Positions 10,961 to 63,899 are shown, counted from the stretch's first letter. The stretch: 64,000 bases of DNA from a virus (IMGVR_UViG_3300037067_007581:1-64000), one strand, 5' to 3'. Made by a program: numbers and translations. The notes: a model not told the origin generated them from the letters alone.

Positions 10961-11581
10961 ATGAAAATATTGAACTTATATTGTGGTCTAGGCGGTAATC
11001 GTAAAAATTGGGGAGATAGTCACGAGATTACTGCCATTGAGAATGTTCCTGAAATAGCTAAAATATATCAGGACTTTTTCCCAAAAGATAAGGTTATCAT
11101 AGCAGATGCTCACCAGTATCTATTAGACCATTATAAAGAGTTTGATTTTATCTGGTCATCTCCACCTTGTCCGAGCCATAGCCAATTAAGATACAATCTG
11201 GGATTTAAAGCCAATCGTAAATATAAAAAGGTTGACGCAGTATATCCAGATATGACGCTATATCAAGAAATTATTTTGCTTAAATATTGGTTTAGTGGAA
11301 AATGGGTAGTTGAAAATACAATACCTTATTATGAGCCATTAGTTGCTGGCCAGAAAGTAGGCGGTCATATTTGGTGGGCGAATTTTATAATCAATAATTT
11401 CAATCACGGAAATCGCAATCATAGAGGCGGAACAGTTGAAACACTACAAGATAGAAAATGTTTAGATATTTCAAAGTATAATATACAAAATAAACGCCAA
11501 ATATTGAGAAATTGTGTAGAGCCTGAAACTGGATTATGGGTATTCCAAGAAGCGTTTAAAGAAAATAAAACTTTAATCTAA
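10961..11581 (+). CDS. Compact C5-cytosine methyltransferase-like protein
   Basis: KILNLYCGLGG (motif I), FIWSSPPC (motif IV) and VVEN (motif VI); only 206 aa. Confidence 0.65.
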   Translation: MKILNLYCGLGGNRKNWGDSHEITAIENVPEIAKIYQDFFPKDKVIIADAHQYLLDHYKEFDFIWSSPPCPSHSQLRYNLGFKANRKYKKVDAVYPDMTLYQEIILLKYWFSGKWVVENTIPYYEPLVAGQKVGGHIWWANFIINNFNHGNRNHRGGTVETLQDRKCLDISKYNIQNKRQILRNCVEPETGLWVFQEAFKENKTLI

Positions 11582-13311: not shown

Positions 13312-14136
13312 ATGGCTATTAGAATAAGAAAATTTGAAGCTAGTAATTATTACGCTATTCACTGTAAAGGAAAGACACTACGAATGACGTTAGACCCTAA
13401 AAAACCTATTACAGAATTAAAGTTTCCTGAGTTTTATGATATTAAAATCACGGGGTTTTGTGCAGGAAATTGCCTTTATTGTTATCAGAATTCAAAGAAG
13501 ACCAACCGCCATTATAAAAATATAATTGGCAAGACTAAAAAATTCTTTGGTAGGATGAAAGAAAATGAAAGGCCTTTTCAGGTAGCATTAGGGGGTGGTA
13601 ATCCAAATCAACATCCAGACTTTATAAAGTTATTAAAAACCTTTTCGGAAATGAATATATTGCCTAATTATACTACTAATGGAATGGGTTTAACTAAGGG
13701 AATTATAAAGGCAACTAAGACATATTGTGGGGGAGTAGCGGTTTCAACACATAGTCATTTAAAGGAAGTTTGGGAACGGGCAGTAAAAAAATTAGTTTTA
13801 AATGGTATTAAAACTAATTTACACCTTATTATTTCAGACCAGGATAGTATTGACCAATTTGTTAGTATCTATAAACAATGGAACTCTTTAATAGACTACT
13901 TTGTTTTATTGCCATATACCGCTAAAGGTAGAGCGGTAGTAAAGAAAATTGACTATGCTTATCTACGAAAAAGATTAAAACAGCTTGATTTAAGAAAAAT
14001 AGCTTTTGGGGCAAATTTTTATTCATTTTTAAGGAAATTTCATAAGGAGTTTAAAATTTCATTATACGAACCAGAAATATTGAGTAAGTATTTAGACTAT
14101 AAAGATATGAAAATTTATAAATCAAGCTTTAGCTAG
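13312..14136 (+). CDS. Radical SAM protein
   Basis: CAGNCLYC (CxxxCxxC), VALGGGNP and NYTTNG. Confidence 0.85.
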   Translation: MAIRIRKFEASNYYAIHCKGKTLRMTLDPKKPITELKFPEFYDIKITGFCAGNCLYCYQNSKKTNRHYKNIIGKTKKFFGRMKENERPFQVALGGGNPNQHPDFIKLLKTFSEMNILPNYTTNGMGLTKGIIKATKTYCGGVAVSTHSHLKEVWERAVKKLVLNGIKTNLHLIISDQDSIDQFVSIYKQWNSLIDYFVLLPYTAKGRAVVKKIDYAYLRKRLKQLDLRKIAFGANFYSFLRKFHKEFKISLYEPEILSKYLDYKDMKIYKSSFS

Positions 14137-16417: not shown

Positions 16418-16446
16418 TTGACAAAATAAAAAAGGTACTGTATAGT
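16418..16446 (+). promoter_or_regulatory. Sigma70-type promoter of the modification operon
   Basis: TTGACA 16418-16423, 17-nt spacer, TATAGT 16441-16446. Confidence 0.85.
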
Positions 16447-16539: not shown

Positions 16540-17265
16540 ATGAAAACAATTCAAAAACTTACAGTTAGCGAAATTTATGCAGGTATTACTACGGAAACTA
16601 TTAATTCAGGGGTACCTGCTATTTTTATTAGGTTGTCGGGACACAACTTGACTATAAAAAATGACCCTTACTCTTATACCTGGGATGAGAGCAATAAGGC
16701 AGTTGGATTACAGATGACCGCGAAAGATATAATTTTAGCTATTAGTAAATTAAAAGTTAAGACTAATCATTTAGTCATTACAGGGGGGGAACCTTTATTA
16801 CAAGACGCTGGTATTATAGAAGTTTTAAAAGAATATCAGTTTACTTTTAATAAAAAGCCTTTTGTAGAAATAGAAACCTGCGGGACTATTATTCCTAGTA
16901 AAGGTTTACAGACGTTGACAGATTTGTTTTCAGTTAATATTAAGTTAGCTAATTCTTTTTCTGGGTCTGCTAGAGATACCTTTTCTACGAGGATAAAGAA
17001 TAGTGTAATCAATTATTTTAATCAGAAAGACATAAAGTCTTATTTTAAATTTTATATTAAAGACATTGGAGATTCTTCAGAATTATTGGAATTAAAAAAG
17101 ATGTTTAAAATAGAGCTTAGTAGAATAGTATTAGTACCAGATGGCTTAAACTATACACAATTTATGAGAATATCTGGAGCAGTTTGGAACTTATGTATTA
17201 GTTCTGGGTTTAAATTTGCTATCAGAACCAAATTTTTAATTTGGGGAGATAAAAGAGGTTTATAA
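16540..17265 (+). CDS. QueE-like paralogue lacking the radical SAM CxxxCxxC motif
   Basis: VSEIY, PAIFIRLSG, VITGGEPLLQ, IETCGT and LIWGDKRG are retained; the Cys motif is replaced by HNLTIKND. Confidence 0.8.
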   Translation: MKTIQKLTVSEIYAGITTETINSGVPAIFIRLSGHNLTIKNDPYSYTWDESNKAVGLQMTAKDIILAISKLKVKTNHLVITGGEPLLQDAGIIEVLKEYQFTFNKKPFVEIETCGTIIPSKGLQTLTDLFSVNIKLANSFSGSARDTFSTRIKNSVINYFNQKDIKSYFKFYIKDIGDSSELLELKKMFKIELSRIVLVPDGLNYTQFMRISGAVWNLCISSGFKFAIRTKFLIWGDKRGL

Positions 17266-17284
17266 TAATTAATTTTTTATATCT

Positions 17285-17860
17285 ATGCTAAAAGTAGGAA
17301 CAATTAAAAAAATTATAATGCCTGAAGGAGTTTGGGCGGGTACTGCTTGTATCTTAGCCGATTTCACTGATGAAAGCGGTTTAGAAAAGGACTCGAATAC
17401 TATTATTGAAGAAATTTTAAAATTAGGCTTACGAAGTGTTTTGGTTAAAGGCATAGTTCGAGAAAGTCCAGAACTAAAAGACATCTTAATTGGGTTATCT
17501 ACTAAAGGTAAGGTTATTACCTTAGTAACAGAAGCTACGGACTTAGTAGAATTAATTAGGCCTTTAAAATATACTAGGGTATTTATGCGGTTACCTATTC
17601 TGGGTATAGAAGAAGCTAAGATTGAGTTGCGTAATTTGCCTCTAATGAAAGATGACGATGAAGTTAAAATTATTATCAAAAGTAAAGAAGATTACGCAGG
17701 TGCTAAAACATTTTTAAAAAATAGGTTAATGACACGCCCAACAATTTTATTTTATTTATCTAGCGATTTAGAAAATCCAGAAGAAATTATTAACCAGTAT
17801 TTAGAGGATTGTGGCAAGTTTATCTTTAAGAGCCGTATAATTAATGCTTATACTAAATAA
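17285..17860 (+). CDS. Second degenerate QueE-like paralogue
   Basis: MLKVGTIKKIIMPEGVWAGT resembles the QueE N-terminus; IIEEILKLG and DEVKIIIKSKEDYAGAK resemble the QueE core; the Cys loop is absent. Confidence 0.55.
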   Translation: MLKVGTIKKIIMPEGVWAGTACILADFTDESGLEKDSNTIIEEILKLGLRSVLVKGIVRESPELKDILIGLSTKGKVITLVTEATDLVELIRPLKYTRVFMRLPILGIEEAKIELRNLPLMKDDDEVKIIIKSKEDYAGAKTFLKNRLMTRPTILFYLSSDLENPEEIINQYLEDCGKFIFKSRIINAYTK

Positions 17861-17870
17861 ATATCCTATT

Positions 17871-18287
17871 ATGAAAGCTAAAAATATCAGTTGGAATAAG
17901 CTAGTTAGAGACATGAACTCTTTATCCGACTTAATTCCAAAGAATAAATTTAAAGCTATTTTGTGTATAACTAAAGGGGGTTTAATTCCTGCTTATTACT
18001 TAGGCAAGAATTTAGGCATTTCAGTTATTGAGACAATGGGTTTAAAATCCTATCACGGCACTAAGAGAGGAAATATTGAGCTGAAGAAACTGCCTGTTAT
18101 TAAAGATTCTTCAACCTTATTAATTGTTGACGACCTAGTGGATAGTGGAGCTACACTTCAATATGTTAAAAAGTATTTTAAGAAAGCCAAGACGGCGGTA
18201 ATTTATAAAAAACCCACCAGTACTTTTGAGCCTACTTATTGGTTATCAGAACAAAAAGGCTGGGTTAATTTTCCTTATGAAATCTAA
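17871..18287 (+). CDS. Purine phosphoribosyltransferase (Gpt-like, type I PRT)
   Basis: ILCITKGGLIPA, LLIVDDLVDSGATL (PRPP-binding) and WVNFPYE. Confidence 0.88.
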   Translation: MKAKNISWNKLVRDMNSLSDLIPKNKFKAILCITKGGLIPAYYLGKNLGISVIETMGLKSYHGTKRGNIELKKLPVIKDSSTLLIVDDLVDSGATLQYVKKYFKKAKTAVIYKKPTSTFEPTYWLSEQKGWVNFPYEI

Positions 18288-18831
18288 TAGAGAAGAACTA
18301 ATTAAACAGTTATTAGACACTATTCCTAATGAAGACTCTAGCAGAGAGGGTCTGCTTAAAACTCCAGAAAGAGTATCCAGAATGTATGATGAAATATTTT
18401 CTGGATATGAAGCTAGAGAAGAAGAATTATTTAAATCCGTATTTTTTTCTGATAATGAGGAAATGGTGGTGGTTCGAGATATAGACTATTATTCTCAATG
18501 TGAACATCATATGGTTCCATTCTTTGGTAAGGTTCATATTGGTTATATTCCAGAGGGTAAAGTTTTAGGGCTTAGTAAGTTTGCCAGATTAGTTGAGGTT
18601 TATGCCAGAAGGCTTCAAATACAAGAACAAATGACTTTTCAGATAGCTTCTGCTATTGAAAAGCACCTTAATCCGAAAGGTTTAATTGTAGTGGTTACCG
18701 GAACCCATTTATGTATGTGTATGCGAGGAGTAAAGAAGGCTAATGCCGTTACTATTACATCAGCTGTTCGAGGGTGCTTTAAGAATGATTTAGGTGTTAA
18801 AGAAGAATTTTTGAAATTAATTAAAATATAA
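18277..18831 (+). CDS. folE: GTP cyclohydrolase I
   Basis: TPERVSRMY, CEHHMVPFFG, GLSKFARLV, QIQEQMT and HLCMCMRGV. Confidence 0.95.
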   Translation: MKSNREELIKQLLDTIPNEDSSREGLLKTPERVSRMYDEIFSGYEAREEELFKSVFFSDNEEMVVVRDIDYYSQCEHHMVPFFGKVHIGYIPEGKVLGLSKFARLVEVYARRLQIQEQMTFQIASAIEKHLNPKGLIVVVTGTHLCMCMRGVKKANAVTITSAVRGCFKNDLGVKEEFLKLIKI

Positions 18832-18833
18832 TT

Positions 18834-20252
18834 ATGTGTTCTATTAATGGTGTTATTAAATTAAAAGGGACTTTAAACCAGGGAGAATGGTTAAAGTTTT
18901 CGGAAATCTGCAAAAAAGGTTCTTTTCGAGGTAGGGATAGTTTTGGCGTAGAGGCTTTCTATGACAGGGGGTTTAGTGCTTTTTCAGAAAGAAGGATAGG
19001 CAATAATAGGGTAATGTCTGTAATGAATTTAGAAAAATTTAAGGAAGGTATTAAAGTTGCTATCAGTAATAATCGAGCAGAGCCTACTACGGAATATGTT
19101 TTAAATAAAAAGGAAAGCGATGTTCAGCCGTATAGTTTTTCTGGTTACCATAAATATTGTAATAGGTATTGGGTAGTTCATAATGGTACTATTGCTAATG
19201 ATAAACAGTTAATTAAAAAATATAATTTCTCTACCCCCAGTAAAATAGATTCTGCTGTAATAGCTCCTTTATTGGATAAGAAGTGGACAAGTAAGGGTAG
19301 TTTAAGGCAGTTAGCTAATATTTTAAGCAGAGAAGTTTTAGGTTCCTATGCTTTTGCTATTTATGATAGATTTACTCCAGAGGCGTTATATTTAGCGGTA
19401 AATTATAAACCATTATTTTTAGAAAAAGTTGGAGATACTATTTATTTCACTAGTCTAAAAGAATTTTTTGGTAAAGAAAGTAATCAGCTATTAGCTAGTA
19501 ATATAGTTCAGATACCACCATATTCTGCAGTAAAGATTAGTGATTCAGGTATTGAAGTTATTAATCTTAGGAAACCTAAAAAAAAGAAAACTGCTTTAGT
19601 GGTGTGTTCGGGGGGTTTAGACAGTACAGTATCCGCGCAAGTAATGAAAAACAAAGGATATAAAGTAACCCTATTACATTTTCAGTATAATTGCCGAGCG
19701 GAATCTAGAGAAGTTCAGGCGGTAAAAGAAATTGCTGAGGCAATGAAAGTGCCTTATTGGTTTATAACTACTGATATTTTCAGCAAAGTAATTAAGCATA
19801 GTCCTATTTTAGATAAAAAGAAACCTGCTGTAGCTAAGATGGATAAGGGAGTAGAATTAGCATATGAGTGGGTTCCTGCTAGGAATTTAATTATGCTTTC
19901 AATAGCTACTGGAATAGCGGAAGCGTACGGGTTTGATAAAATAGTTCTAGGTAATAATTTAGAGGAATCTGGTGCTTATCCAGACAACGAGGCTATTTTT
20001 ATAGAAAAATTTGCTGAGATATTGCCTTATGCTGTGAATCTGAATAAAGAAATTCAGATTGAAATGCCTGTGGGTAACTTAATGAAACATGAAATTATTA
20101 AATTAGGTATCCGAGAAAAAGCACCTTTAGATAAAACCTGGAGTTGCTATGATAACGGAATTTTACATTGTGGAGTATGTGGCCCTTGTCGTATGCGTAA
20201 GGTGGGTTTTCAGATGAATAATATTAAAGACAGTATTAATTATTTAAAATAA
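18834..20252 (+). CDS. queC: Glutamine amidotransferase-QueC fusion (Gat-QueC)
   Basis: Ntn class II GATase (MCSING, NNRAEP, VHNGTI, DS) fused to QueC (VCSGGLDST, VPARN, YPD, SCY...CGVCGPC). Confidence 0.92.
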   Translation: MCSINGVIKLKGTLNQGEWLKFSEICKKGSFRGRDSFGVEAFYDRGFSAFSERRIGNNRVMSVMNLEKFKEGIKVAISNNRAEPTTEYVLNKKESDVQPYSFSGYHKYCNRYWVVHNGTIANDKQLIKKYNFSTPSKIDSAVIAPLLDKKWTSKGSLRQLANILSREVLGSYAFAIYDRFTPEALYLAVNYKPLFLEKVGDTIYFTSLKEFFGKESNQLLASNIVQIPPYSAVKISDSGIEVINLRKPKKKKTALVVCSGGLDSTVSAQVMKNKGYKVTLLHFQYNCRAESREVQAVKEIAEAMKVPYWFITTDIFSKVIKHSPILDKKKPAVAKMDKGVELAYEWVPARNLIMLSIATGIAEAYGFDKIVLGNNLEESGAYPDNEAIFIEKFAEILPYAVNLNKEIQIEMPVGNLMKHEIIKLGIREKAPLDKTWSCYDNGILHCGVCGPCRMRKVGFQMNNIKDSINYLK

Positions 20253-20255
20253 AGT

Positions 20256-21071
20256 ATGCCCTCAAAGAAAATAGCTATTATTGGTATTGGAGGAGTTGGT
20301 AAAGAGCATATTCGAGCGGCTAGGAATTTAGGTTTAGAAATTATTGGCGTTGATAATAACTTAGAAGTACTACGGGAATATGAAAATGTATTTTTCCCAA
20401 CTAAAACAATAGTTAATAAATGGGGCAAAGTTGAGGAGAAGTTTGAAATAGAACCTTTTAAATTATACACTGATTTATTTTTTGTTCCAGAATATGATTA
20501 TGCGGTTATAGCCACCCCAACTTTTACACACCAGGTTATATTAGATTCAATTTTTAATGATAAACCGGTACTGATTGAAAAGCCTATGAATATAGATTGG
20601 AATTTACTTTCTTGTAATATTCCTAGTCGTGTCTTTGGCGGTTATACTTATGCCTGTTTAGACTTAAAGAAAAAACCCGTTAAAGAGCATACTTTTGTTT
20701 TAACAGTAGATGACCATTATAATAGCCAGACTTGGAGAGCCGATAGCACACCTGCTGAAGACTTAATACCACATTTACTGGCTTTAGGGGCAGTCTATTT
20801 TAAGCAAGATTCTATTAAATTACTATCTATACAGAAGTTTAAAAATAGCGCTATGCTTGAGGTGCTGTATGGGGAAACAGATAAAGCTATCTTAATAGGT
20901 ATTTATGGCAAAGACGGCCATAACCTAACAATAAACGGTAAAGGAATACCAATAAACTATGAGGAGTTATTTACTAAACAATTAAAGAAGTTTATTTCAG
21001 GAGAGAAGCAGACTTATTTACAAAATATAGAAAATTTTTATGCTACACATCTTAAAAGCACCAGAGTATAG
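20256..21071 (+). CDS. Gfo/Idh/MocA family NAD(P)-dependent oxidoreductase
   Basis: IAIIGIGGVGKEH, AVIATPTFTH and VLIEKP. Confidence 0.8.
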   Translation: MPSKKIAIIGIGGVGKEHIRAARNLGLEIIGVDNNLEVLREYENVFFPTKTIVNKWGKVEEKFEIEPFKLYTDLFFVPEYDYAVIATPTFTHQVILDSIFNDKPVLIEKPMNIDWNLLSCNIPSRVFGGYTYACLDLKKKPVKEHTFVLTVDDHYNSQTWRADSTPAEDLIPHLLALGAVYFKQDSIKLLSIQKFKNSAMLEVLYGETDKAILIGIYGKDGHNLTINGKGIPINYEELFTKQLKKFISGEKQTYLQNIENFYATHLKSTRV

Positions 21072-22041
21072 GGGAAGACCAGAACCCTTAATTAATCAAG
21101 CTATAATTAAAACGGCTATTGATAGGGGGATAGATTTTCTAACCTATGACATTACGAGACCCAATTCAGAAGTTGAGACTGTGGGTTCTTGTTATAATAA
21201 TGATAAAACTGTTAGAGGTCAGATAATCCAATTCCAAAACTTTATATTTAATTTTGAAGAAGGAGATGATGTACTATGCTTAGAAGGTTTTAATCCTGCA
21301 TTATTATTCCTACCTTTAATGGCTAAAAAGACCGGGAAAGTTGGTGTTCTTTATCATTCCTCAACTGCTATTTCCGCAGACGCATATTCAAATAATTATC
21401 CTGTTTCTGAAATGGAAAAAGGCATATCAAATTTATCAGATGTTATCTTTTGTGCAACACAATATATTTCCGATAAAATCAAAAATTGTGAACCTAGTGC
21501 TAAAACTTTGGTAACAGGTTTGCCTTTTGACACTTTAAATGAAGTTTTTGTTTTAGCTAGAAAGAAAGAGAAGAAAGATGTTGTTATATTTAATCATCGA
21601 TGGGCTAATGATAAAAGACCAGAAATGTTTTTAGAGTTAGCTAAAAGGTTCCCAAAATACCAGTTTATAGTTTTAACTCCTTATGAGAATGTAATTTCTC
21701 AGGTTATTAAAGATAGGAAATCTAATAATGTAATAGGGAAACTATGTCGGACAAGAATAGACTATTTTAAAGAGCTGTCAGAAGCAAAATATATATTCTC
21801 AGCAGCAGAATTAGAAACTTTTGGTTATTCTGTATTAGAAGGAGTAGCTTGTGGGGCAATTCCGATTCTAACTAATACCGCTTGTTATAATGAGTTATAT
21901 CCTTTACAGTATTTGGGGGATACGGTTAATGACCTTGCTAGAATAATGAATGAAATTAAAGTATTCGACAGCTTTATATTGAAAAATTTAGAAAAATATC
22001 GTTATTCATCAGAGAGAATCTTAGACTTCTTTAATAAATAA
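21040..22041 (+). CDS. GT-B (GT4-like) glycosyltransferase
   Basis: VIFNHRW..DKRPE and ELETFGYSVLEGVACGAIPI (E-x7-E). Confidence 0.8.
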   Translation: MLHILKAPEYRGRPEPLINQAIIKTAIDRGIDFLTYDITRPNSEVETVGSCYNNDKTVRGQIIQFQNFIFNFEEGDDVLCLEGFNPALLFLPLMAKKTGKVGVLYHSSTAISADAYSNNYPVSEMEKGISNLSDVIFCATQYISDKIKNCEPSAKTLVTGLPFDTLNEVFVLARKKEKKDVVIFNHRWANDKRPEMFLELAKRFPKYQFIVLTPYENVISQVIKDRKSNNVIGKLCRTRIDYFKELSEAKYIFSAAELETFGYSVLEGVACGAIPILTNTACYNELYPLQYLGDTVNDLARIMNEIKVFDSFILKNLEKYRYSSERILDFFNK

Positions 22042-22046
22042 GTTTT

Positions 22047-22949
22047 ATGAAATTATTTTTAGTGGTAAGTCCAATTAAGAAGTATATGACTACAATACGA
22101 AATAGCGATGTTAAGAATATCTTAATTTCATATTTTTATTGGAAAGATGTTAAACCCCCTGAATTATTAGACTTTTTTAAGGAAATGCAGTCTAAGGGGG
22201 TTACTATTTTCCTAGATTCAGGAGCATTTACTTTTATTAATCAGCAAAGGAAGAATAAGCAGTTAGTAGCTAAAGATAAACTGACAGAATATTTTTTTCA
22301 GTTTACTAATGACTATATAGGTTTTATTAAGCAGTATTATAATTATATTGCTGGTTACGCTGAAATGGATGTAGACACAGTAATTGGGTTTCAGAAAGTT
22401 TTAGCGTTAAGGAATTTATTTCCTCAAGAAATATTACCAAAATTAATCCCAGTATATCATCCTGAAACTAGAACAATGGAGGATTGGAAACATGACTGTA
22501 ATAACTACCCTTTTGTTGCTTTAGGTTCTAAGACAGGTAGTACAGAAATGAGCTATTATAAAACTATGACTAAATATCCATATCAGAATGGAAATAAAGT
22601 TCATGGATTTGCTTTAGTAAACCAGACTATATTAAAAAAGTATCCTTTTTATTCAGCAGACAGTTCTTCTTGGATGTCTTGCAGTAGATATGGGCAATTA
22701 ATGGTATTTGATAAAGCTTTAGGCAGATTAGTTCAATTTCATTACCGGAATAGAGAAAAAATATTAAAATATTTGCCCACTATAATGAAATATGTTCCTA
22801 ATTTTAAAGAGATGTACGAAAGAGAGGGTGTTCAAGGTAGGATAAGTAGAATAGAACGATTAAAAGTAACTGCTTCTTCTTATAAGGAATTAGAGGAATA
22901 TTTGACTAGAGTATGGGAACGTAAAGGCATTACTTGGTCAGAGGATTAA
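22047..22949 (+). CDS. dpdA: DpdA-like 7-deazaguanine DNA transglycosylase (TGT fold)
   Basis: IFLDSGAFT, YAEMDV, LIPVYH, VALGS, KVHGFA and YSADSSSW; located within the queC/folE locus. Confidence 0.8.
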   Translation: MKLFLVVSPIKKYMTTIRNSDVKNILISYFYWKDVKPPELLDFFKEMQSKGVTIFLDSGAFTFINQQRKNKQLVAKDKLTEYFFQFTNDYIGFIKQYYNYIAGYAEMDVDTVIGFQKVLALRNLFPQEILPKLIPVYHPETRTMEDWKHDCNNYPFVALGSKTGSTEMSYYKTMTKYPYQNGNKVHGFALVNQTILKKYPFYSADSSSWMSCSRYGQLMVFDKALGRLVQFHYRNREKILKYLPTIMKYVPNFKEMYEREGVQGRISRIERLKVTASSYKELEEYLTRVWERKGITWSED

Positions 22950-22965
22950 CTATTAATTATATACT

Positions 22966-23130
22966 ATGCCTAAAAAATTAAATCATCGAGAAAAATTACG
23001 TTTAGCCAGAAGGTTACGAAGAACTGATGAAATAGAAAGGGGTATTCCACCTTTTGATTGTAGTGGTTGGAGTCATAGAAGGAATGAAATTTCAAAACGT
23101 GTTTCTAAAAAATTAAAACATAAGAAATAA
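22966..23130 (+). CDS. Small basic protein (not in ORF track)
   Basis: MPKKLNHREKLRLARRLRRTDEIERGIPPFDCSGWSHRRNEISKRVSKKLKHKK. Confidence 0.55.
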   Translation: MPKKLNHREKLRLARRLRRTDEIERGIPPFDCSGWSHRRNEISKRVSKKLKHKK

Positions 23131-23133
23131 CCT

Positions 23134-23838
23134 ATGGAAATAAAAAATATTTCACTCGAACAAATTAAGCCTAATAAATATAATCCGAATATAGTACCAG
23201 ATAAAATAATGGGGCAACTAAAGAAGTCTATTCAGAGAGATGGTTTTTTACAGCCTTTAATAGTCCGAGAAAGTCCAACAGAACCAGGTTTTTATGAGAT
23301 TATTGATGGAGAACATCGCTGGAAAGTCCTTTCAGATTTACCCGATTATAAAGAAGCTCCTTGTTTAGTAATTAATAAAGACGACAACTTATCTAAGATT
23401 CAGACTATTAATTTAAATAAACTACGCGGAGAATTTGATAGTATTAAATTAGCAGAGGTATTAGTTAGCTTGAAGAAGATTTATTCTGACGAGGAGTTAG
23501 AGGAAATGCTTGGTTATACTAAAGAAGAAATCCAGGGTTATGAAGAATTATTGACTTTTGACTTTGATAGCTTTAAAAAGGAAGATGAAGTTGATGTTAG
23601 TGAAGCTATTAAAGACCCAGAAATGTCGGAAGAGATGAACTTAATGCTAAATGATAAGCAATTAATCATTATTACCGCAACACTAGAATTAAAAGATATT
23701 AATAGTCGGGAAGAATCTCTTTCAGATATTTGTAAGGAATATTTACAAAAATTATACCCTGAAAAATGGGCAGATGTAGAGAGAAGACTACAAGGTTTGG
23801 AAACTCCTTTAAAAACTACAGAGACGGAAGTACTTTAA
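23134..23838 (+). CDS. ParB/Srx N-terminal domain protein
   Basis: IKPNKYNPN, SIQRDGFLQPLIV and YEIIDGEHRW. Confidence 0.85.
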   Translation: MEIKNISLEQIKPNKYNPNIVPDKIMGQLKKSIQRDGFLQPLIVRESPTEPGFYEIIDGEHRWKVLSDLPDYKEAPCLVINKDDNLSKIQTINLNKLRGEFDSIKLAEVLVSLKKIYSDEELEEMLGYTKEEIQGYEELLTFDFDSFKKEDEVDVSEAIKDPEMSEEMNLMLNDKQLIIITATLELKDINSREESLSDICKEYLQKLYPEKWADVERRLQGLETPLKTTETEVL

Positions 23839-23841
23839 AGG

Positions 23842-23886
23842 TTATCCCCCCAAAAACTTGACAAAGTTAAAAAACTATCTTATAAT
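23842..23886 (+). promoter_or_regulatory. Sigma70-type promoter with degenerate DnaA-box-like site
   Basis: TTATCCCCC 23842-23850, TTGACA 23858-23863, 17-nt spacer, TATAAT 23881-23886. Confidence 0.85.
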
Positions 23887-23892
23887 ACTTGT

Positions 23893-24192
23893 ATGGAATT
23901 AAAAAAGTTTATAACACTAGAATCCTTAAACGAATTTTTAAAAACCGCCAAGAATGTAAAGAAGGTAAAACTTCTGACAGAGGGCGGAGAGGAGTTGAGA
24001 CATTTTAAATTAATAACTGTTTTTTATGTCTTATTTGACAATGAAGGGGAATACCAAAAGAATATAGAAGATATAGGTTTTGTTAAACCTAATAAAGGGA
24101 AGCCTTCTTATAAAGAAATAATTGACCAACCTATTAAGGACGATAAATATTTTCAAGAACCCGATGGTTCCAGTATAGGGTTACCATTTTAA
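23893..24192 (+). CDS. Hypothetical protein
   Basis: ORF track. Confidence 0.5.
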   Translation: MELKKFITLESLNEFLKTAKNVKKVKLLTEGGEELRHFKLITVFYVLFDNEGEYQKNIEDIGFVKPNKGKPSYKEIIDQPIKDDKYFQEPDGSSIGLPF

Positions 24193-24210
24193 TTATTAAA
24201 TAAAAACATT

Positions 24211-24429
24211 ATGGCGTTTAAAGAGTTCTTTCAAGGTCATAAAAAGCAATTTAAAAAAGACCAAGAAGAGTTGAAGGGTAAGGCAAAAGATTTTCAGAAA
24301 GAGTATGAAGCAATTTGTGATAAATATGGTTTAGAATTAGCAGTTGGTTTAGATTATCAAAAGCATGGTATTTTTCCTAAAATAGAATTGATTAAGAGGC
24401 AGGGCATTGAAAAACCTATTAACGTTTAA
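24211..24429 (+). CDS. Hypothetical protein
   Basis: ORF track. Confidence 0.5.
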   Translation: MAFKEFFQGHKKQFKKDQEELKGKAKDFQKEYEAICDKYGLELAVGLDYQKHGIFPKIELIKRQGIEKPINV

Positions 24430-24447
24430 TTATTAATATATAAAATT

Positions 24448-24723
24448 ATGGGAGATGAAGTTAAAACCAAATTGCCTTCTTCCGGAATTTCTATTGCCGG
24501 ATTATGCTTAGGCATTACTTCATTATTGCTGTTTTGGGTTCCAATAGTACACTTCATAGTAATGGTTTTAGGTGTAATATTTGGTTCAGTAGCAATAAGT
24601 AGAAAGCAAAGATTTGGCGTAGCTGGTCTAGCGACATCTTTGGGTAGTGAGGTACTAGCCATCGGTTACTTTTTAGTCATTATCTACATTTCAGCGGCTA
24701 CTGCTTATAATATGCCAGTATAG
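24448..24723 (+). CDS. Small membrane protein (DUF4190-like)
   Basis: SIAGLCLGITSLLLFWVP..GVIFGSVAI..GVAGL pattern with multiple TM helices. Confidence 0.55.
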   Translation: MGDEVKTKLPSSGISIAGLCLGITSLLLFWVPIVHFIVMVLGVIFGSVAISRKQRFGVAGLATSLGSEVLAIGYFLVIIYISAATAYNMPV

Positions 24724-24799
24724 AATTTTAAAAGGTAGTAAACGAGAGTAATTAATTTTACTTTTCGTTTACAGTATGTTTATTCCTAATTAAAATCTT

Positions 24800-25036
24800 A
24801 TGTCTCCAGATACATTAATCATAGCTACTATCAACGGCACTACTCCTATTGCTTTATATGGCAATATGAATGAAATGAATAATCTTTTTTCAGAGGCTAC
24901 GAAGGCTTTTTATGATAAACAGAAGAGAATAAAAGAATTGTTTACTAAGCGAGGGGAAGAATATTTAGAAGAAGCTGTTCAAAAAGTTGAGTTTAGCTTT
25001 CCTATCATTACTGAGTCTTTAAAAAATAAGCTTTAA
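24800..25036 (+). CDS. Hypothetical protein
   Basis: ORF track. Confidence 0.5.
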   Translation: MSPDTLIIATINGTTPIALYGNMNEMNNLFSEATKAFYDKQKRIKELFTKRGEEYLEEAVQKVEFSFPIITESLKNKL

Positions 25037-25040
25037 TATT

Positions 25041-25466
25041 ATGTTTAATATCTCAAAAGAAATAACTTTTGAAGCAGCACACCGACTGCCAAATCATCAA
25101 GGTCTTTGTAAAAATATACATGGGCATCATTATAGAGTTGAAATGGAAATACAAGGTGACAAGTTGGAGGAAGGACAAGGGTTCTTAATTGACTTTTCTG
25201 AAATAAGAAGAAAGACCGAACAATACTTTCATCGTTTTGACCACGCTTGTATATTGTGGCTTAAAGACCAAATAATAATTCAAGCATTAGACAAATTAGG
25301 AATGAAGATAGCTGAAATGCCTGAAATACCTACTGCCGAAAATATGGCGAAAATGTTTTTTAATGATTTATCAGAAATATTAAATACAAACGATATTAAT
25401 TTATCGGCTATAACTGTTTGGGAAACCCCAACAGGCAAGGCTACTTACTCAAACATAAACTTATGA
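25041..25466 (+). CDS. queD: 6-carboxy-5,6,7,8-tetrahydropterin synthase
   Basis: FEAAHRL, CKNIHGHHY, RFDHA, PTAENMA and VWETP. Confidence 0.93.
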   Translation: MFNISKEITFEAAHRLPNHQGLCKNIHGHHYRVEMEIQGDKLEEGQGFLIDFSEIRRKTEQYFHRFDHACILWLKDQIIIQALDKLGMKIAEMPEIPTAENMAKMFFNDLSEILNTNDINLSAITVWETPTGKATYSNINL

Positions 25467-26236
25467 CATTAGGAACCACAAGTTATACTAATGCTAATTT
25501 TTTAAGAGTTGCCAAAATGCCTGATGGAACTCCAGAGGTATATCAAGCAGTTCAGGGAGAAGGTATTTCAACGGGCAAGCCTATGGTAATTGTTCGTTTA
25601 GCTTTATGCACGTTAAAGTGTTCTTTTTGTGATTCCAAATATACACATCAGTTTGAGGGGGGGAATAGAAATTTTGAGGCCTACGTAGTTAAGATGTCTA
25701 TTCCAGAATTAGGAGACTTAATAGAAAAGACCAGGGGAAATCATAAAAATGTAATGCTGACGGGAGGAGAACCTTTATTTCAGCAGGTTACTTTGATTTT
25801 ATTAATGGACTACTTGAATAATACTTATGGTAAGGGTTGGAATTTTGAAATAGAAACTAATGGTACAATCGTTCCTGTAAAGCCCTTTTGGAAAAGAGTA
25901 GGTTTAATTACTTGTTCACCTAAACTCGCCTCTAGTGGCAATACAGAGGCAAATAGAGATATACCAGAGGCTATTACTGCTTTATTAAAGGTGAAAAAGC
26001 CAGTTTGGTTTAAATTTGTTATCTCTAACAGTTGGGCGCAAGATTTACAGGAGATAAAAGATTGGCAGGATAAATATCGTGTTCCAAATAATAGAATCTA
26101 CTTAATGCCAGAAGGTATTGAGCCAAAAGAAGTAATTACTAATGGGAAAATAGTAAATGAATTAGCTATCAGACATGGTTATTTAGCTTCAAGTCGTATT
26201 CAGGTTTTAATTTATGGAAATCGAAGAGCAATTTAA
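25463..26236 (+). CDS. queE: 7-carboxy-7-deazaguanine synthase (intact radical SAM)
   Basis: VQGEG, CTLKCSFCDS (CxxxCxxC), LTGGEP, IETNGT, CSPKL and YLMPEG; ATG overlaps the queD TGA. Confidence 0.93.
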   Translation: MTLGTTSYTNANFLRVAKMPDGTPEVYQAVQGEGISTGKPMVIVRLALCTLKCSFCDSKYTHQFEGGNRNFEAYVVKMSIPELGDLIEKTRGNHKNVMLTGGEPLFQQVTLILLMDYLNNTYGKGWNFEIETNGTIVPVKPFWKRVGLITCSPKLASSGNTEANRDIPEAITALLKVKKPVWFKFVISNSWAQDLQEIKDWQDKYRVPNNRIYLMPEGIEPKEVITNGKIVNELAIRHGYLASSRIQVLIYGNRRAI

Positions 26237-57988: not shown

Positions 57989-58615
57989 ATGAATACAAAA
58001 GAAGCTAGGCATAACTTAGTAGGGCCAGGTCTTCGTTGGGAAACTGCTAGACAATTTCAGAAAGATTTTATTTTAAAGCAAGGTTTAAAACCAACGAATT
58101 TATTTTTAGATATTGGTTGTGGAACTTTAAGAGGAGACATTCCTATTATCTGTTATTTAGACGAAGGTAATTTCTTTGGTATTGATGTTCGAGATTCTGT
58201 AATAGAAGAAGCTAAACTGGAAGCCATAGAAGAAAGCGTAATAGAAAAGAAACCCAACCTTATTGCTTTTAAAGAATTTTCAGAATTAAATCTTCCTGAA
58301 ATGGATTTTATTTGGGCATTTTGTGTTCTAATTCATCTTTCCGATAAAATCCTAGAAGATTGTTTTGCGTTCGTTTCTAAAATATTAAAACAAGGTGGAG
58401 TATTCTATGGTAATGTAAATAGTTATAGTGAAGAAAAGCAAGCCGCAACTTGGCACCAGTTTCCTATCCAGTTTAAGCGTGTAGAAGTCTATAAAGAATT
58501 GGGAGAAAAATATGGTTTGAAAATGGAAATTGTAGGGGAGTTACCAGACTTAGGATATATTCCAGACGGCCCAACGGAAGTGAAATTAGTAATGTTAAAA
58601 TTTACTAAAACTTAA
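57989..58615 (+). CDS. Class I SAM-dependent methyltransferase
   Basis: FLDIGCGTLRG, FFGID, MDFIWAFCVLIHL and LKQGG. Confidence 0.85.
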   Translation: MNTKEARHNLVGPGLRWETARQFQKDFILKQGLKPTNLFLDIGCGTLRGDIPIICYLDEGNFFGIDVRDSVIEEAKLEAIEESVIEKKPNLIAFKEFSELNLPEMDFIWAFCVLIHLSDKILEDCFAFVSKILKQGGVFYGNVNSYSEEKQAATWHQFPIQFKRVEVYKELGEKYGLKMEIVGELPDLGYIPDGPTEVKLVMLKFTKT

Positions 58616-61377: not shown

Positions 61378-62150
61378 ATGAAAACCTCCATTATAATCTT
61401 ATCCTACAACACGTTAGAATTTACTAAACTCTGCCTTTTAAGTCTAAAGCACACGAACCTAAAATACCATATGAGATTATAGTTTTAGACAATTGTTCAA
61501 CGGACGGCAGTCAAGAATGGTTAAAGCAAATAAAATGGCCTAATTTCAAATTTGTTAGCCTAAATCAAAATACTCTATTCAGTCGTGGTAATAATATTGC
61601 CCGATACTTTATTTCCGAGGACAGCACACACTTATTACTTTTAAATTCTGATGTTTTAATTAATGAAAATGGTTGGCTAGAAGAACGCATTAATCCTTTA
61701 CAAGGAAATATAGCTATTTCAGGAACTCCAGGAAATTGCCATAATTGGAAAACAGGTGGTAAATTTTTCTTTGACGACCTAATAAATAGAACTACTTCTC
61801 CAGGAGATAAACAAAAAACTGAATTATCTTTTGCTTTGAATTGCTTATTGCCAGACGGAATTATTAATGAAATTACTGGTTGGAGTTTAGCAACTACAGT
61901 AGAACTTTGGGATAAATTAGGAGGTTTAAGAATAGAAGGTAAATATGCTCACATGTGGTCAGATACAGAATTTTGTATTCGAGCTCAATTATTAGGTTAT
62001 AAATTATGTAGACAAGGTTATAATAATAAAATGATTCATTTTTCAGGGTTGTCTCATTCTGCTATTCATAATAAAGAAAATTATGATAAAAGAGTTTTGC
62101 TAATTAGAGATAAATTAAAATACTATGAGCAAAATACAGCTATTAATTGA
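61378..62150 (+). pseudogene. GT2 family glycosyltransferase split by a frameshift near 61461-61464
   Basis: Frame 1: MKTSIIILSYNTLEFTKLCLLSL stops at 61482. The -1 frame continues IPYEIIVLDNCSTDGS...LLLNSDV...WSDTEFC to 62150. Confidence 0.75.
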
Positions 62151-63141
62151 TTCTGCTTGTAATGAAAATAGCAGTTTAGGCAGAGTGGGTCACTATTTAA
62201 TTAGCTATTTTTTAAAACAACCAGAATATAACACTTGGATTCGACCTTGGCTTGGTTCTAATTTTACAAAAGAAATGGAACCTTGTTTAAGGCAACCTAC
62301 TGAAGGAATAGATGTAATATTAAGGAAAAGCGACCCCTATATGTCGGGGTTCTTACATCAGATTTGTCGTAAAGGAGTAATTTCTTTCATTTATTATGAT
62401 AATAGGAATATTGACCCTAAAGTAATTGAAGCTTTGAACCATTGTGTTAAATTACTAATTGTTCCATCCATTTTTTTGAAAGAAAGATTTATAAAATTTG
62501 GGGTAACTATACCTATTAAAATAGCTCCTTTGGGAGTAGATAGAAATGTCTTCCAGAATTTTCAAAAAGTAAAAAAGAATACCTTTACTTTTATTAATTA
62601 TGGTGAACAATCTGAAAGAAAAGGTAGCGATTTACTTCTTAAAGCTTTTGTAGAAGAATTTGGCAATAATCCTAATGTGTTCTTAAAAATATTATGCTCT
62701 TCTTGGAAATACGTTCAATTTGAAAATTTTAAACAGTATAAAAATATAATCTTTATAGAAGACAAATTAAGTAATGAAGATTTAGTTAAGGAAATAAATA
62801 GTGCGGAATGCTTTATAGCTTTAACTAGAGAAGACAGTTTTGGTATGTGCGGTCTAGAAAGTATGTCTTGTGGACTTCCTGTAATAGCTCCTGAGAAATC
62901 TGGTTATAGTCAGTATGTGGATACGATTAATGGTTTCTTAGTCCAGAGTGAGGAAATAGAACACGAGAGGTGGCAATATATTCCAAAAATTATTTCTGCA
63001 AGGATACAAATGAAGAAGGCAGTAGAACTATATGAAACTCCCGAATGGTCTAAAAAGGTTCTTTCAGCTATTAGAACGGCCAATAAATTGTCTTGGGAAC
63101 GACTGGGCAATCAATTAAATAAATTAATTCAAGAGTTATGA
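62125..63141 (+). CDS. GT4 family glycosyltransferase
   Basis: ERKGSDLLLKAF and REDSFGMCGLESMSCGLPVIA. Confidence 0.85.
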   Translation: MSKIQLLIDSACNENSSLGRVGHYLISYFLKQPEYNTWIRPWLGSNFTKEMEPCLRQPTEGIDVILRKSDPYMSGFLHQICRKGVISFIYYDNRNIDPKVIEALNHCVKLLIVPSIFLKERFIKFGVTIPIKIAPLGVDRNVFQNFQKVKKNTFTFINYGEQSERKGSDLLLKAFVEEFGNNPNVFLKILCSSWKYVQFENFKQYKNIIFIEDKLSNEDLVKEINSAECFIALTREDSFGMCGLESMSCGLPVIAPEKSGYSQYVDTINGFLVQSEEIEHERWQYIPKIISARIQMKKAVELYETPEWSKKVLSAIRTANKLSWERLGNQLNKLIQEL

Positions 63142-63899
63142 AATTAATAGGTTTAATCCGACAAAGAAATGAAGACTACTTATTAGAGAAATGTTTAAAA
63201 CATGCACTTATTTTTTGTGACCATATTATAATTTACGATGACTATTCCAACGATAAAGGTACTTTAAGCCTATTATATAATTTAGATACTTTTAATGACC
63301 GAATAACCGTAGTTTATAATTCAAATTGGAATGACGGCTTTCGAGAGGCAGATGAAACAAAACATCGGCAAATATTACTAGATAAAGCAAGAGAATTTTT
63401 TGGTAATGATATTTGGTTATACTATTTTGATGCAGATGAGGTAGTAGAAAGTCCCGAGCAGATTAGAGAGCAATTAGCAGTTACTAAAGAGAAAGCATTT
63501 AAGGTAAGATTATTTGACGCGTATGCTCTTAAAAGCGAGCAACCTTATATAAACCAGAAATTATGGAATTTCAGAAAATATTTTGGGCCAGAATATAGGG
63601 ATATAATAATGTTTTGGAAAAATAGTCCTGATGTTAATTTTCTAGGTATTGATAAAAGAGAGCCAGAAGTTAAGGCTTCTAAAATATTAACTTATTGCCA
63701 ACATTATGGTAAGGCGTTATCTGAAAAAAGGTTTGAAGATAAATGCGACTATTATATAAAGCATTTCTCTAAAAGATACCAAGATAAATGGCGCCAAAGA
63801 AAAGGTTTTTATTACCATAATACACTTTCAGATTTTGGCAGACATTTAATAACCTGGAAAGATGCTCGAGACGAAACAAAGATTATTAAACTAACTTAA
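63138..63899 (+). CDS. GT2-like glycosyltransferase
   Basis: LIRQRNEDYLLEKCL, IIYDDYSND and YFDADE (DxD). Confidence 0.8.
   Translation: MKLIGLIRQRNEDYLLEKCLKHALIFCDHIIIYDDYSNDKGTLSLLYNLDTFNDRITVVYNSNWNDGFREADETKHRQILLDKAREFFGNDIWLYYFDADEVVESPEQIREQLAVTKEKAFKVRLFDAYALKSEQPYINQKLWNFRKYFGPEYRDIIMFWKNSPDVNFLGIDKREPEVKASKILTYCQHYGKALSEKRFEDKCDYYIKHFSKRYQDKWRQRKGFYYHNTLSDFGRHLITWKDARDETKIIKLT

Follow-up and report, generated by a model that had tools for sequence, protein, structure and literature searches.

A glycosyltransferase conserved beside DpdA in phage 7-deazaguanine gene clusters suggests a sugar-bearing DNA base

The virus contig IMGVR_UViG_3300037067_007581, an 86-kb (86,087-base) IMG/VR record estimated to be 72% complete, carries a gene cluster that almost certainly directs 7-deazaguanine modification of DNA. 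Here, we analyze the first 64 kb of this record (64,000 nucleotides; hereafter, the window), in which the cluster occupies positions 16540–26236. In addition to enzymes predicted to make a 7-deazaguanine base and the DNA guanine transglycosylase DpdA, the cluster encodes a GT4-type glycosyltransferase (GT), a Gfo/Idh/MocA-family oxidoreductase (hereafter, Gfo), and a ParB-like protein. Homologs of the GT recur next to DpdA in diverged viral loci, and these gene neighborhoods argue that GT and Gfo very probably belong to the deazaguanine pathway. The fuller proposal, that a base of the dG+ (deoxyarchaeosine) type is inserted into DNA and then glycosylated and tailored, is one to which we give even chances.

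The close homologs of the GT among 5.8 billion proteins form only two clusters, and both reside in Gfo-GT-DpdA-ParB blocks. The first cluster, P0045, consists of two contigs. Its locus L005 carries the Gfo-GT-DpdA-ParB block, and its ENA contig reproduces the gene order of the window, namely a protein of 232 amino acids (aa), a protein of 197 aa, a phosphoribosyltransferase (PRT), FolE, Gat-QueC, Gfo, and GT. The second cluster, P0046 (loci L006 and L007), has the order QueE-FolE-QueC-Gfo-GT-DpdA-ParB, and the IMG/VR locus L011 has the order FolE-GatQueC-Gfo-GT-DpdA-ParB. The proteins of the Gfo-GT-DpdA-ParB blocks in L005, L006, and L011 are 27–45% identical to those of the window. Gfo adjoins the GT in six further distinct loci: these three, L102, L103, and the phage PhiXhv-12.

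The same association is found when DpdA is the starting point. Using an alignment of DpdA as the query, we gathered 80 viral DpdA loci (a single DpdA sequence found none), 18 of which contain the GT. Counting all 23 distinct loci with both genes, GT and DpdA are immediate neighbors in 18. On a phylogenetic tree of DpdA, a single branch (support of 93 in the SH-like approximate likelihood ratio test) has 22 of the 23 GT-linked rows on the same side, and the GT label requires 3 changes, compared to 20.5 in shuffles, with none of 500 shuffles giving a number as low. The sole GT-less row inside the GT-linked group, L062, has its DpdA at the contig start, where an upstream GT could not be seen. Because related sequences share labels, the shuffle test reports clustering, not independent events; the adjacency of GT and DpdA over 25–45% identity is the stronger argument. 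The GT-linked DpdA proteins are also longer, with a median of 293 aa compared to 250 aa for the rest, a difference of ~43 aa. The ParB-like protein follows the same pattern: it is present in 14 of the 18 GT-bearing DpdA loci and in 5 of the 62 others (Fisher p 2e-8). Finally, a full HMMER search defines a GT family of 999 representatives at E < 1e-10. Four members of decreasing rank were sampled, all on short contigs: two have DpdA directly downstream, one of these with Gfo upstream, and a third has a Gfo-like gene downstream. Recurrence with DpdA across loci, which the original prediction had proposed as a check on the additional genes, is thus found for the GT4 and for Gfo.

Most GT-DpdA-ParB loci have the order QueD-QueE-FolE-(small T-fold protein)-GT-DpdA-ParB, without QueC. 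The small T-fold protein carries the motif LxxxHRHxF, the signature of DpdL (Cui et al. 2023, PMC10516641). The subclade of the window (the window, L005, L002, and L011) and L006 encode QueC or Gat-QueC, and all but L002 also encode Gfo. We suggest that the same GT-DpdA-ParB module is fed by two base-synthesis branches, one through DpdL and the other through QueC or Gat-QueC. The sugar-tailoring neighbors of the GT vary: Gfo is present in the window, a PIG-L-type protein plus Gfo in PhiXhv-12, an SDR epimerase-like protein in phage PA5oct, and a GT2 glycosyltransferase in L039. An arginase-family protein and an ATP-grasp ligase are further neighbors. Such variety would be as expected for glycan chemistry. 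The notion is that GT4, DpdA, and ParB constitute a conserved three-protein machine for a sugar-bearing 7-deazaguanine, with interchangeable tailoring enzymes and a swappable base branch (DpdL, QueC, or Gat-QueC). We hold this generalization tentatively, at slightly under even chances.

Individual loci have features of their own. L002, the closest long-contig relative, encodes a HAD-phosphatase-like N-terminal domain fused to QueC (L002:7724-8764; weak Pfam matches, all below cut-off), and it encodes two cytidylyltransferase-like genes, a LicD phosphotransferase, a mannose-6-phosphate-isomerase-type cupin, and a PRT (L002:13227-16275 and 18177-19000). No QueE and no Gfo occur within the 19.7 kb of sequence covered. 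In L005, a Hint/intein domain interrupts the QueE gene (L005:5682-7663). In L013, a 237-kb jumbo phage contig, an arginase-family hydrolase and a GARS-like ATP-grasp ligase directly follow the GT and Gat-QueC genes (L013:12500-14514); this hydrolase and ligase could act on a C7 amidine or carboxylate.

Three cultured phages encode homologs of the GT. The Xanthomonas jumbo phage PhiXhv-12 has, in order, Gat-QueC, a PIG-L-type GlcNAc deacetylase, the GT, and a Gfo/Idh/MocA protein. Acidovorax phage ACP17 has QueD, FolE, two unknown proteins, the GT (gp124), a DpdL-motif protein (gp125), and QueE. Pseudomonas phage PA5oct has the GT (gp167), the SDR epimerase-like protein, a PRT (gp163), and QueE (gp162). 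The profile of the window's DpdA clade found no match in the genomes of PhiXhv-12, ACP17, and PA5oct or in the 237-kb contig of L013, an empty answer that carries little weight; the DpdA reported for ACP17 is of another type. Since GT homologs occur in clusters without this DpdA clade, the GT appears to go with the deazaguanine pathway as such and not with a single DpdA family. Two published observations concern these phages. First, ACP17 dpdL plus dpdA gave no dDG (the deoxynucleoside of 7-deazaguanine) in Escherichia coli, and further enzymes may be needed (Cui et al. 2023, PMC10516641); the missing GT may account for this failure. Second, PA5oct DNA resists G-site restriction enzymes, from which a modified G of unidentified nature was inferred (PMC12191111). 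With the GT family inside the deazaguanine genes of PA5oct, ACP17, and PhiXhv-12, the comparative result is directly testable.

The GT gene (21040..22041, + strand) encodes 333 aa, matches Glycos_transf_1 with 28.9 bits against a cut-off of 26.4, and ends 5 nt upstream of dpdA. Glycos_transf_1 (PF00534) is matched by 25 of 31 members of the GT family. In the alignment, the protein keeps the catalytic E-x7-E, which, together with the donor-side residues R187 and K192, is conserved across the 31 family members. A structural model built from 4 sequences, with a predicted local distance difference test (pLDDT) score of 67 and used for fold class only, has a GT-B fold; its best match is BshA (3mbo) at E 2e-9, and MshA and PimA are also among the fold matches. 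A profile search of the PDB returned generic GT4 enzymes, several of which use UDP-N-acetylglucosamine (UDP-GlcNAc), with GtfA among the best. The nearest folds, together with the PIG-L deacetylase beside the PhiXhv-12 homolog, suggest UDP-GlcNAc as the donor. In the N-terminal (acceptor) domain, R13, D76, H106, and D114 are near-invariant across DpdL-type and QueC-type clusters, which suggests an acceptor feature common to both kinds of cluster. We also considered kinship with the queuosine mannosyltransferase QTMAN/GTDC1 and rejected it: none of the 31 family members matches the QTMAN_N model at E <= 0.01.

The phage GT looks like an active glycosyltransferase. DNA binding and base flipping are known from GT-B enzymes, the T4 glucosyltransferases among them, and the rigid adjacency of GT and DpdA would also suit a non-catalytic partner that binds DNA or flips the base for DpdA and transfers no sugar. 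Conservation of E-x7-E, R187, and K192 across the 31 members, along with the presence of the sugar-tailoring enzymes Gfo, PIG-L, SDR, and GT2, makes a purely non-catalytic role extremely improbable.

The gene encoding Gfo, a NAD(P) oxidoreductase of 271 aa (20256..21071, + strand; PF01408 2e-10, 41.9 bits against a cut-off of 24), overlaps the start of the GT gene by 32 nt. The motifs GxGxxG, EKP, and DxxxH are invariant in 4 orthologs. The best NCBIfam match is UDP-GlcNAc 3-dehydrogenase (2e-7, far below cut-off).

The remaining enzymes supply the base. FolE, GTP cyclohydrolase I (18226..18831, + strand), matches PF01227 at 1e-71 and TIGR00063 with 235 bits, above cut-off; its likely ATG, at 18277, overlaps the end of the PRT gene. 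Gat-QueC (18834..20252, + strand) is a 472-aa fusion of a class-II glutamine amidotransferase to QueC (QueC 1e-54 plus GATase_6/7) that matches the phage family phrog_10428 full-length at 1e-131. It keeps the N-terminal MC with the Cys nucleophile, the PP-loop SGGLDS, and the C-terminal Cys cluster (CxxC) expected to bind Zn. QueD, the CPH4 synthase (25041..25466, + strand; PTPS 1e-32), has the canonical CxxxHGH as CKNIHGH, the sole such motif across the 86-kb record, and the DpdL motif LxxxHRHxF does not occur across that record. An intact radical-SAM QueE (25418..26236, + strand; phrog_2076 3e-50; PDB QueE 6nhl 5e-10) has CTLKCSFC, QGEG, and GGEP, and its likely ATG at 25463 overlaps the queD stop. 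These assignments support a 9g-type dG+ core gene set with its enzymes intact. From homology and intact motifs, FolE, QueD, and QueE would convert GTP to 7-carboxy-7-deazaguanine, Gat-QueC would then yield preQ0 or the archaeosine base G+, and DpdA, which has the fold of tRNA-guanine transglycosylase (TGT), would exchange guanine in DNA for the resulting base. The 9g Gat-QueC plus DpdA lead to dG+ formation in E. coli DNA, and whether G+ forms before or after insertion was stated to be unknown (Hutinet et al. 2019, PMC6884629). Thus, the fixed order given in the original prediction, in which Gat-QueC makes the G+ base and DpdA then inserts it, is not established.

DpdA (22047..22949, + strand; phrog_887 4e-33) belongs to the long (~293 aa) GT-linked clade. 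It has no Pfam match, and tblastn relates it to annotated phage DpdAs at 1e-12 to 1e-18. The match to CAjan-like DpdAs is weak (E 2e-6, 26% identity), and neither 9g nor CAjan is represented in the DpdA tree. As a profile against PDB sequences, the DpdA alignment returned nothing; the TGT relationship is seen by fold search instead. Specifically, the AlphaFold model (pLDDT 91) has TGTs as its top Foldseek matches, and it aligns with the Zymomonas mobilis TGT at Z 18.5 with a root-mean-square deviation of 3.5 Å over 271 residues. The residues D57-S58-G59-A60 of the DSGA(F) motif and a second aspartate, D205, are invariant in 21 clade members. Judging from the motif rather than from residue-level superposition, D57 and D205 are probably equivalent to TGT D102 and D280. 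Downstream lies the gene for the ParB/Srx-fold protein (23134..23838, + strand; 234 aa; ParB_N 1e-13), which has a DGEHR motif. The bacterial DpdB is a ParB-like ATPase that DpdA requires for insertion (PMC10164549). By analogy, the phage ParB-like protein is a probable NTPase partner of DpdA and would serve it as DpdB does in bacteria.

The separate DpdA clade bears on the timing of sugar addition, which could occur before or after base insertion. If before, the GT would act on the free 7-deazaguanine base, as in huimycin synthesis, and the long DpdA would have co-evolved to insert the glycosylated product. There is precedent for the chemistry, in that the huimycin enzyme HuiG glycosylates a free preQ0-derived base with UDP-GlcNAc; a distinct, longer DpdA clade is what an altered base pocket would lead one to expect, and the Gat-QueC step could likewise precede or follow insertion. 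But the pockets of the TGT family bury the base tightly and would have to open widely to fit a hexose at N2 or at the amidine, and the GT family also occurs alongside other DpdA types. Glycosylation of the free base is, we judge, distinctly unlikely.

We lean toward sugar addition after insertion. The GT4 would transfer a sugar from a nucleoside diphosphate (NDP)-sugar, for which UDP-GlcNAc or a hexose are the best guesses, to the deazaguanine; Gfo would oxidize or reduce that sugar or its donor; and the DNA would bear a sugar-carrying deazaguanine instead of plain dG+. Because one GT family with a conserved acceptor domain occurs in clusters predicted to make bases with different C7 groups, N2 or another position common to 7-deazaguanines is as likely an attachment site as the amidine. 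That the final base carries a sugar is, in our estimate, about a coin toss.

Several observations weigh against a sugar on the base. Most GT-linked clusters have the DpdL-motif protein and no QueC; the base predicted there, 7-deazaguanine, would have no C7 handle, which makes a common acceptor site hard to name. An N2-linked sugar would project into the minor groove, where it could interfere with replication. Four more glycosyltransferases are encoded at 62–66.6 kb of the record, so glycan chemistry in this virus need not concern DNA. The pLDDT of 67 for the GT model is moderate, and donor and acceptor are unreadable from it. Pfam and PDB profile matches to Gfo cover the N-terminal part only, with no C-terminal Pfam domain. 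Among PADLOC models, DpdA has no match as bacterial DpdA, and the ParB-like protein matches no DpdB model, only the ParB-like parts of MTase_II models.

Some of these points suit another account, in which the phage makes plain dG+, as 9g does. The target of GT and Gfo would then lie elsewhere, for instance in a soluble metabolite, a virion protein, or a glycan of the host envelope, and the two genes would have in common with dpdA only an early/middle operon. The core set alone suffices for dG+ in E. coli (PMC6884629), the separate block of four glycosyltransferases plus methyltransferases makes non-DNA glycosylation plausible, and the DpdL-type partners offer no obvious sugar acceptor. However, the 18 loci (of 23) in which the GT abuts DpdA extend down to 25–30% identity, the GT follows one DpdA clade, the GT family also occurs in deazaguanine clusters with a different DpdA type, and linkage across siphovirus-like contigs and jumbo phages would be unexpected for an unrelated passenger. 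We consider the passenger account unlikely. The second glycan block itself comprises a GT4 (62125-63141) that passes the cut-off of PF20706, "GT4 in conflict systems", a GT2 (63138-63899), a fusion of a glycosyltransferase to a SAM methyltransferase (63907-65310), and another GT4 (65324-66631); part of the block is L099:907-3631. A methyltransferase is encoded at 57989-58615. The block could extend a DNA glycan, or it could serve virion or host glycans.

The PRT is of wider distribution. The gene (17844..18287, + strand) overlaps both flanking genes and encodes a 147-aa purine PRT of the Gpt/XGPRT type (PF00156 1e-11). Against NF006613, the Gpt equivalog model, it scores 106.9 bits, below the cut-off of 138, and it is called a relative, not an equivalog. 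It matches PDB structures of E. coli XGPRT at ~1e-15 and keeps the phosphoribosyl pyrophosphate (PRPP) motif VDDLVDSG and the purine-stacking Trp. Homologs are encoded by phiST and related phages, by Brevundimonas phages, and by Flavobacterium phage immuto_2-6A, in which the PRT gene lies directly upstream of FolE inside a cluster that makes the known base fdPreQ1. Moreover, an iterated search found a shortened PRT-like domain fused to the FolE N-terminus in 19 distinct DpdA loci, some of which have the GT and some not. The original prediction had taken the PRT to point to a new product; these neighborhoods argue otherwise. The PRT accompanies phage FolE as a general accessory and most likely salvages guanine: the one guanine freed in each DpdA exchange would be converted by the PRT to GMP and return as GTP for FolE. 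That PRT and FolE are linked so widely suggests that the guanine released by DpdA is recycled in phages. For the fused mini-domain, regulatory nucleotide binding is just as plausible as salvage. The mini-domain is ~100 aa in length, ~30 residues short of the full enzyme, and the loci with fusions include L003, L015, L016, L017, L021, L025, L027, L029, L048, L050, L053, L054, L056, L061, L083, and L085. Neither a phosphoribosyltransferase nor a PRT-FolE fusion is mentioned in Hutinet et al. 2019 (PMC6884629) or Cui et al. 2023 (PMC10516641).

The PRT raises one more route to a modified base, at the level of nucleotides. Here, the PRT would ribosylate the deazaguanine with PRPP, as ToyH and TubE do, and GT and Gfo would act on the nucleotide or nucleoside to give a polymerase precursor or a metabolite. 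A PRT and a HAD phosphatase are the signature tailoring pair of toyocamycin and tubercidin clusters; L002 has the HAD-like domain fused to QueC (weak, below cut-off) plus a PRT; and the PA5oct PRT adjoins QueE, near the GT. The PRT, though, is a typical Gpt/XGPRT with 6-oxopurine motifs, it neighbors FolE in immuto_2-6A, a phage whose DNA base can be accounted for with no PRT, and it is often shrunk to the FolE-fused mini-domain. An intact DpdA is present as well, and the abstract of Cui et al. 2023 argues for post-replicative insertion. This route is very unlikely, and, with Gpt motifs kept and FolE linkage or fusion widespread, we rank a ToyH/TubE-like deazapurine ribosyltransferase low as a candidate function for the PRT.

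Two QueE paralogs open the gene run. Paralog 1 (16540..17265, + strand; 241 aa) has a full-length QueE fold (phrog_2076 3e-28; TIGR03963 1e-13, far below cut-off), with HNLTIKND at the cysteine position, TTET in place of QGEG, and GGEP kept. All 61 of its database homologs have the three Cys, and 57 have QGEG in the first 60 residues; no Cys-less relative is among the 61. Paralog 2 (17285..17860, + strand; 191 aa; TIGR04349 1e-7), whose Atlas structure has a TM of 0.82 to QueE clusters, has the Fe-S loop deleted and lacks GGEP. Its sole sequenced relative, a 34% identical homolog, lies between QueD and FolE in L002; an unannotated 197-aa ORF (open reading frame) occupies the paralog 2 position in the ENA contig. 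Paralog 2 is maintained by selection, as its divergence from the L002 copy matches that of other orthologs. Judged by their motifs, both proteins share the QueE fold and are not QueE enzymes: radical chemistry is predicted to be impossible. Their role may be to bind a partner protein or an intermediate of the pathway. With one sequenced relative for paralog 2 and no Cys-less relative for paralog 1, the comparisons give no sign that the paralogs are co-conserved with the system at large, and both are apparently lineage-specific. The original prediction had pointed to a product beyond the known derivatives. Co-conservation of GT4 and Gfo with DpdA sustains that proposal, and the PRT and the QueE paralogs give no such sign. 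A new product is a well-supported prediction and not a result.

An ORF list and family searches place all of the genes originally named at their coordinates, on the + strand and abutting or overlapping. From 16540 to 23838 lie ten abutting or overlapping ORFs: QueE paralog 1, QueE paralog 2, PRT, FolE, Gat-QueC, Gfo, GT4, DpdA, a 54-aa ORF, and the ParB-like gene. The very basic 54-aa ORF (22966..23130, + strand; from the ORF list) is of uncertain membership, and in L005 the DpdA-ParB gap is too small for a counterpart. Four small ORFs of 99, 72, 91, and 78 aa (23893..25036, + strand), with no Pfam family above cut-off, separate parB from queD, and QueD and QueE complete the locus up to 26236. 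The best promoter-like site in our scan, TTGACA-17 nt-TATAAT (23858..23886, + strand), is a perfect sigma-70-like consensus (12/12 matches) directly 3' of parB and a possible start of a second transcription unit. The second-best, TTGACA-17 nt-TATAGT (16418..16446, + strand; 11/12 matches), lies in the 207-nt gap upstream of the gene for QueE paralog 1; counts of promoter-like sites and terminators in the region are at chance level, so this site is only a pointer. Since the two best promoter-like sites precede 16540 and follow parB, two transcription units, 16540-23838 and 23893-26236, are plausible. Rfam at gathering thresholds finds nothing in the window, so the locus has neither a preQ1 riboswitch nor another RNA of a known family.

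The window has a GC content of ~32%, carries every gene on the + strand, and also encodes a family-A DNA polymerase, a helicase, RtcB, a terminase, a portal protein, a capsid protein, and a tape-measure protein. Megablast of the locus against 50,697 phage records gave no match at the DNA level. GATC is absent: 0 sites occur in the window compared to 131 expected from shuffles, and 0 in the whole record compared to ~247 expected from base composition. CATG, GTAC, TCGA, ACGT, and TGCA are present, each depleted about threefold. Upstream of the locus are a C5-cytosine DNA methylase domain of fragment length (10961-11581; 206 aa) and a further radical-SAM protein (13312-14136; 274 aa).

To our knowledge, known DNA glycosylation concerns pyrimidines. 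Our full-text searches of the literature found no report of a glycosylated purine in natural DNA, and no description of a GT in a phage deazaguanine cluster or of a glycosylated deazaguanine in DNA. Eight 7-deazaguanine derivatives have been counted in phage DNA, all without sugar (Cui et al. 2023, PMC10516641). If our proposal is true, the product would, as far as is known, add a purine to the glycosylated bases of natural DNA for the first time, and sugar-bearing deazapurines would constitute a new class of DNA base. Such a base would bear on evasion of restriction and CRISPR, on modification-dependent nucleases (END family), on sequencing artifacts, and on enzyme tools for DNA labeling.

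The nearest known system is the dG+ system of the 9g type, composed of FolE, QueD, QueE, Gat-QueC, and DpdA1 (PMC6884629). The same five enzyme families are present in the window with their motifs intact, and the two DpdAs have the TGT fold and a DSGxF motif in common. The window differs in that its DpdA belongs to a separate, longer, GT-linked clade, usually with a ParB-like protein, and in the addition of Gfo, PRT, and two dead QueE paralogs. ParB, phosphoribosyl, and glycosyltransferase receive no mention in Hutinet et al. 2019 (PMC6884629). With respect to the DpdL-type dDG system (PMC10516641), most GT-DpdA-ParB modules sit behind QueD-QueE-FolE plus a DpdL-motif protein, phiST has a PRT homologous to that of the window, and the ACP17 cluster has the GT homolog gp124, whereas the window lacks the DpdL motif and uses Gat-QueC. 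Cui et al. 2023 (PMC10516641) mention neither GT nor PRT. The bacterial DpdA-DpdB(-DpdC) system (PMC10164549) likewise places a TGT-fold DNA transglycosylase beside a ParB-superfamily protein, and the DGEHR motif of the window's ParB resembles the DGQQR of DpdB. Unlike the bacterial system, the window has no PADLOC DpdA or DpdB match and no DpdC; its setting is phage counter-defense, and the DpdA-ParB partnership is our inference.

Clusters for free deazapurine metabolites provide a second kind of comparison. HuiG of the huimycin cluster is a family-4 glycosyltransferase that puts GlcNAc on a preQ0-derived free base, and the same preprint describes PRT and HAD as toyocamycin/tubercidin tailoring enzymes and deliberately excludes dpdA-containing regions (bioRxiv 10.64898/2026.04.15.718813). 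As in the window, a GT4-type enzyme lies beside FolE/QueD/QueE/QueC in the huimycin (and dapiramicin-type) clusters. The donor of HuiG is UDP-GlcNAc, and BshA and GtfA, which rank best among the fold and profile matches of the phage GT, are UDP-GlcNAc enzymes as well, a likeness drawn from descriptions of the enzymes. In contrast, the HuiG product is a free secondary metabolite of dpdA-less actinomycetes, whereas the window's GT abuts a DNA transglycosylase. Finally, the T4 alpha- and beta-glucosyltransferases and other virus glycosyltransferases (bioRxiv 10.1101/2023.12.21.572611) act on 5-hydroxymethyl pyrimidines via the hydroxymethyl handle, which sets them apart from the system proposed here, but they follow the same logic: a sugar is added post-replicatively to a modified base, and the tailoring varies in a manner that suits an arms race.

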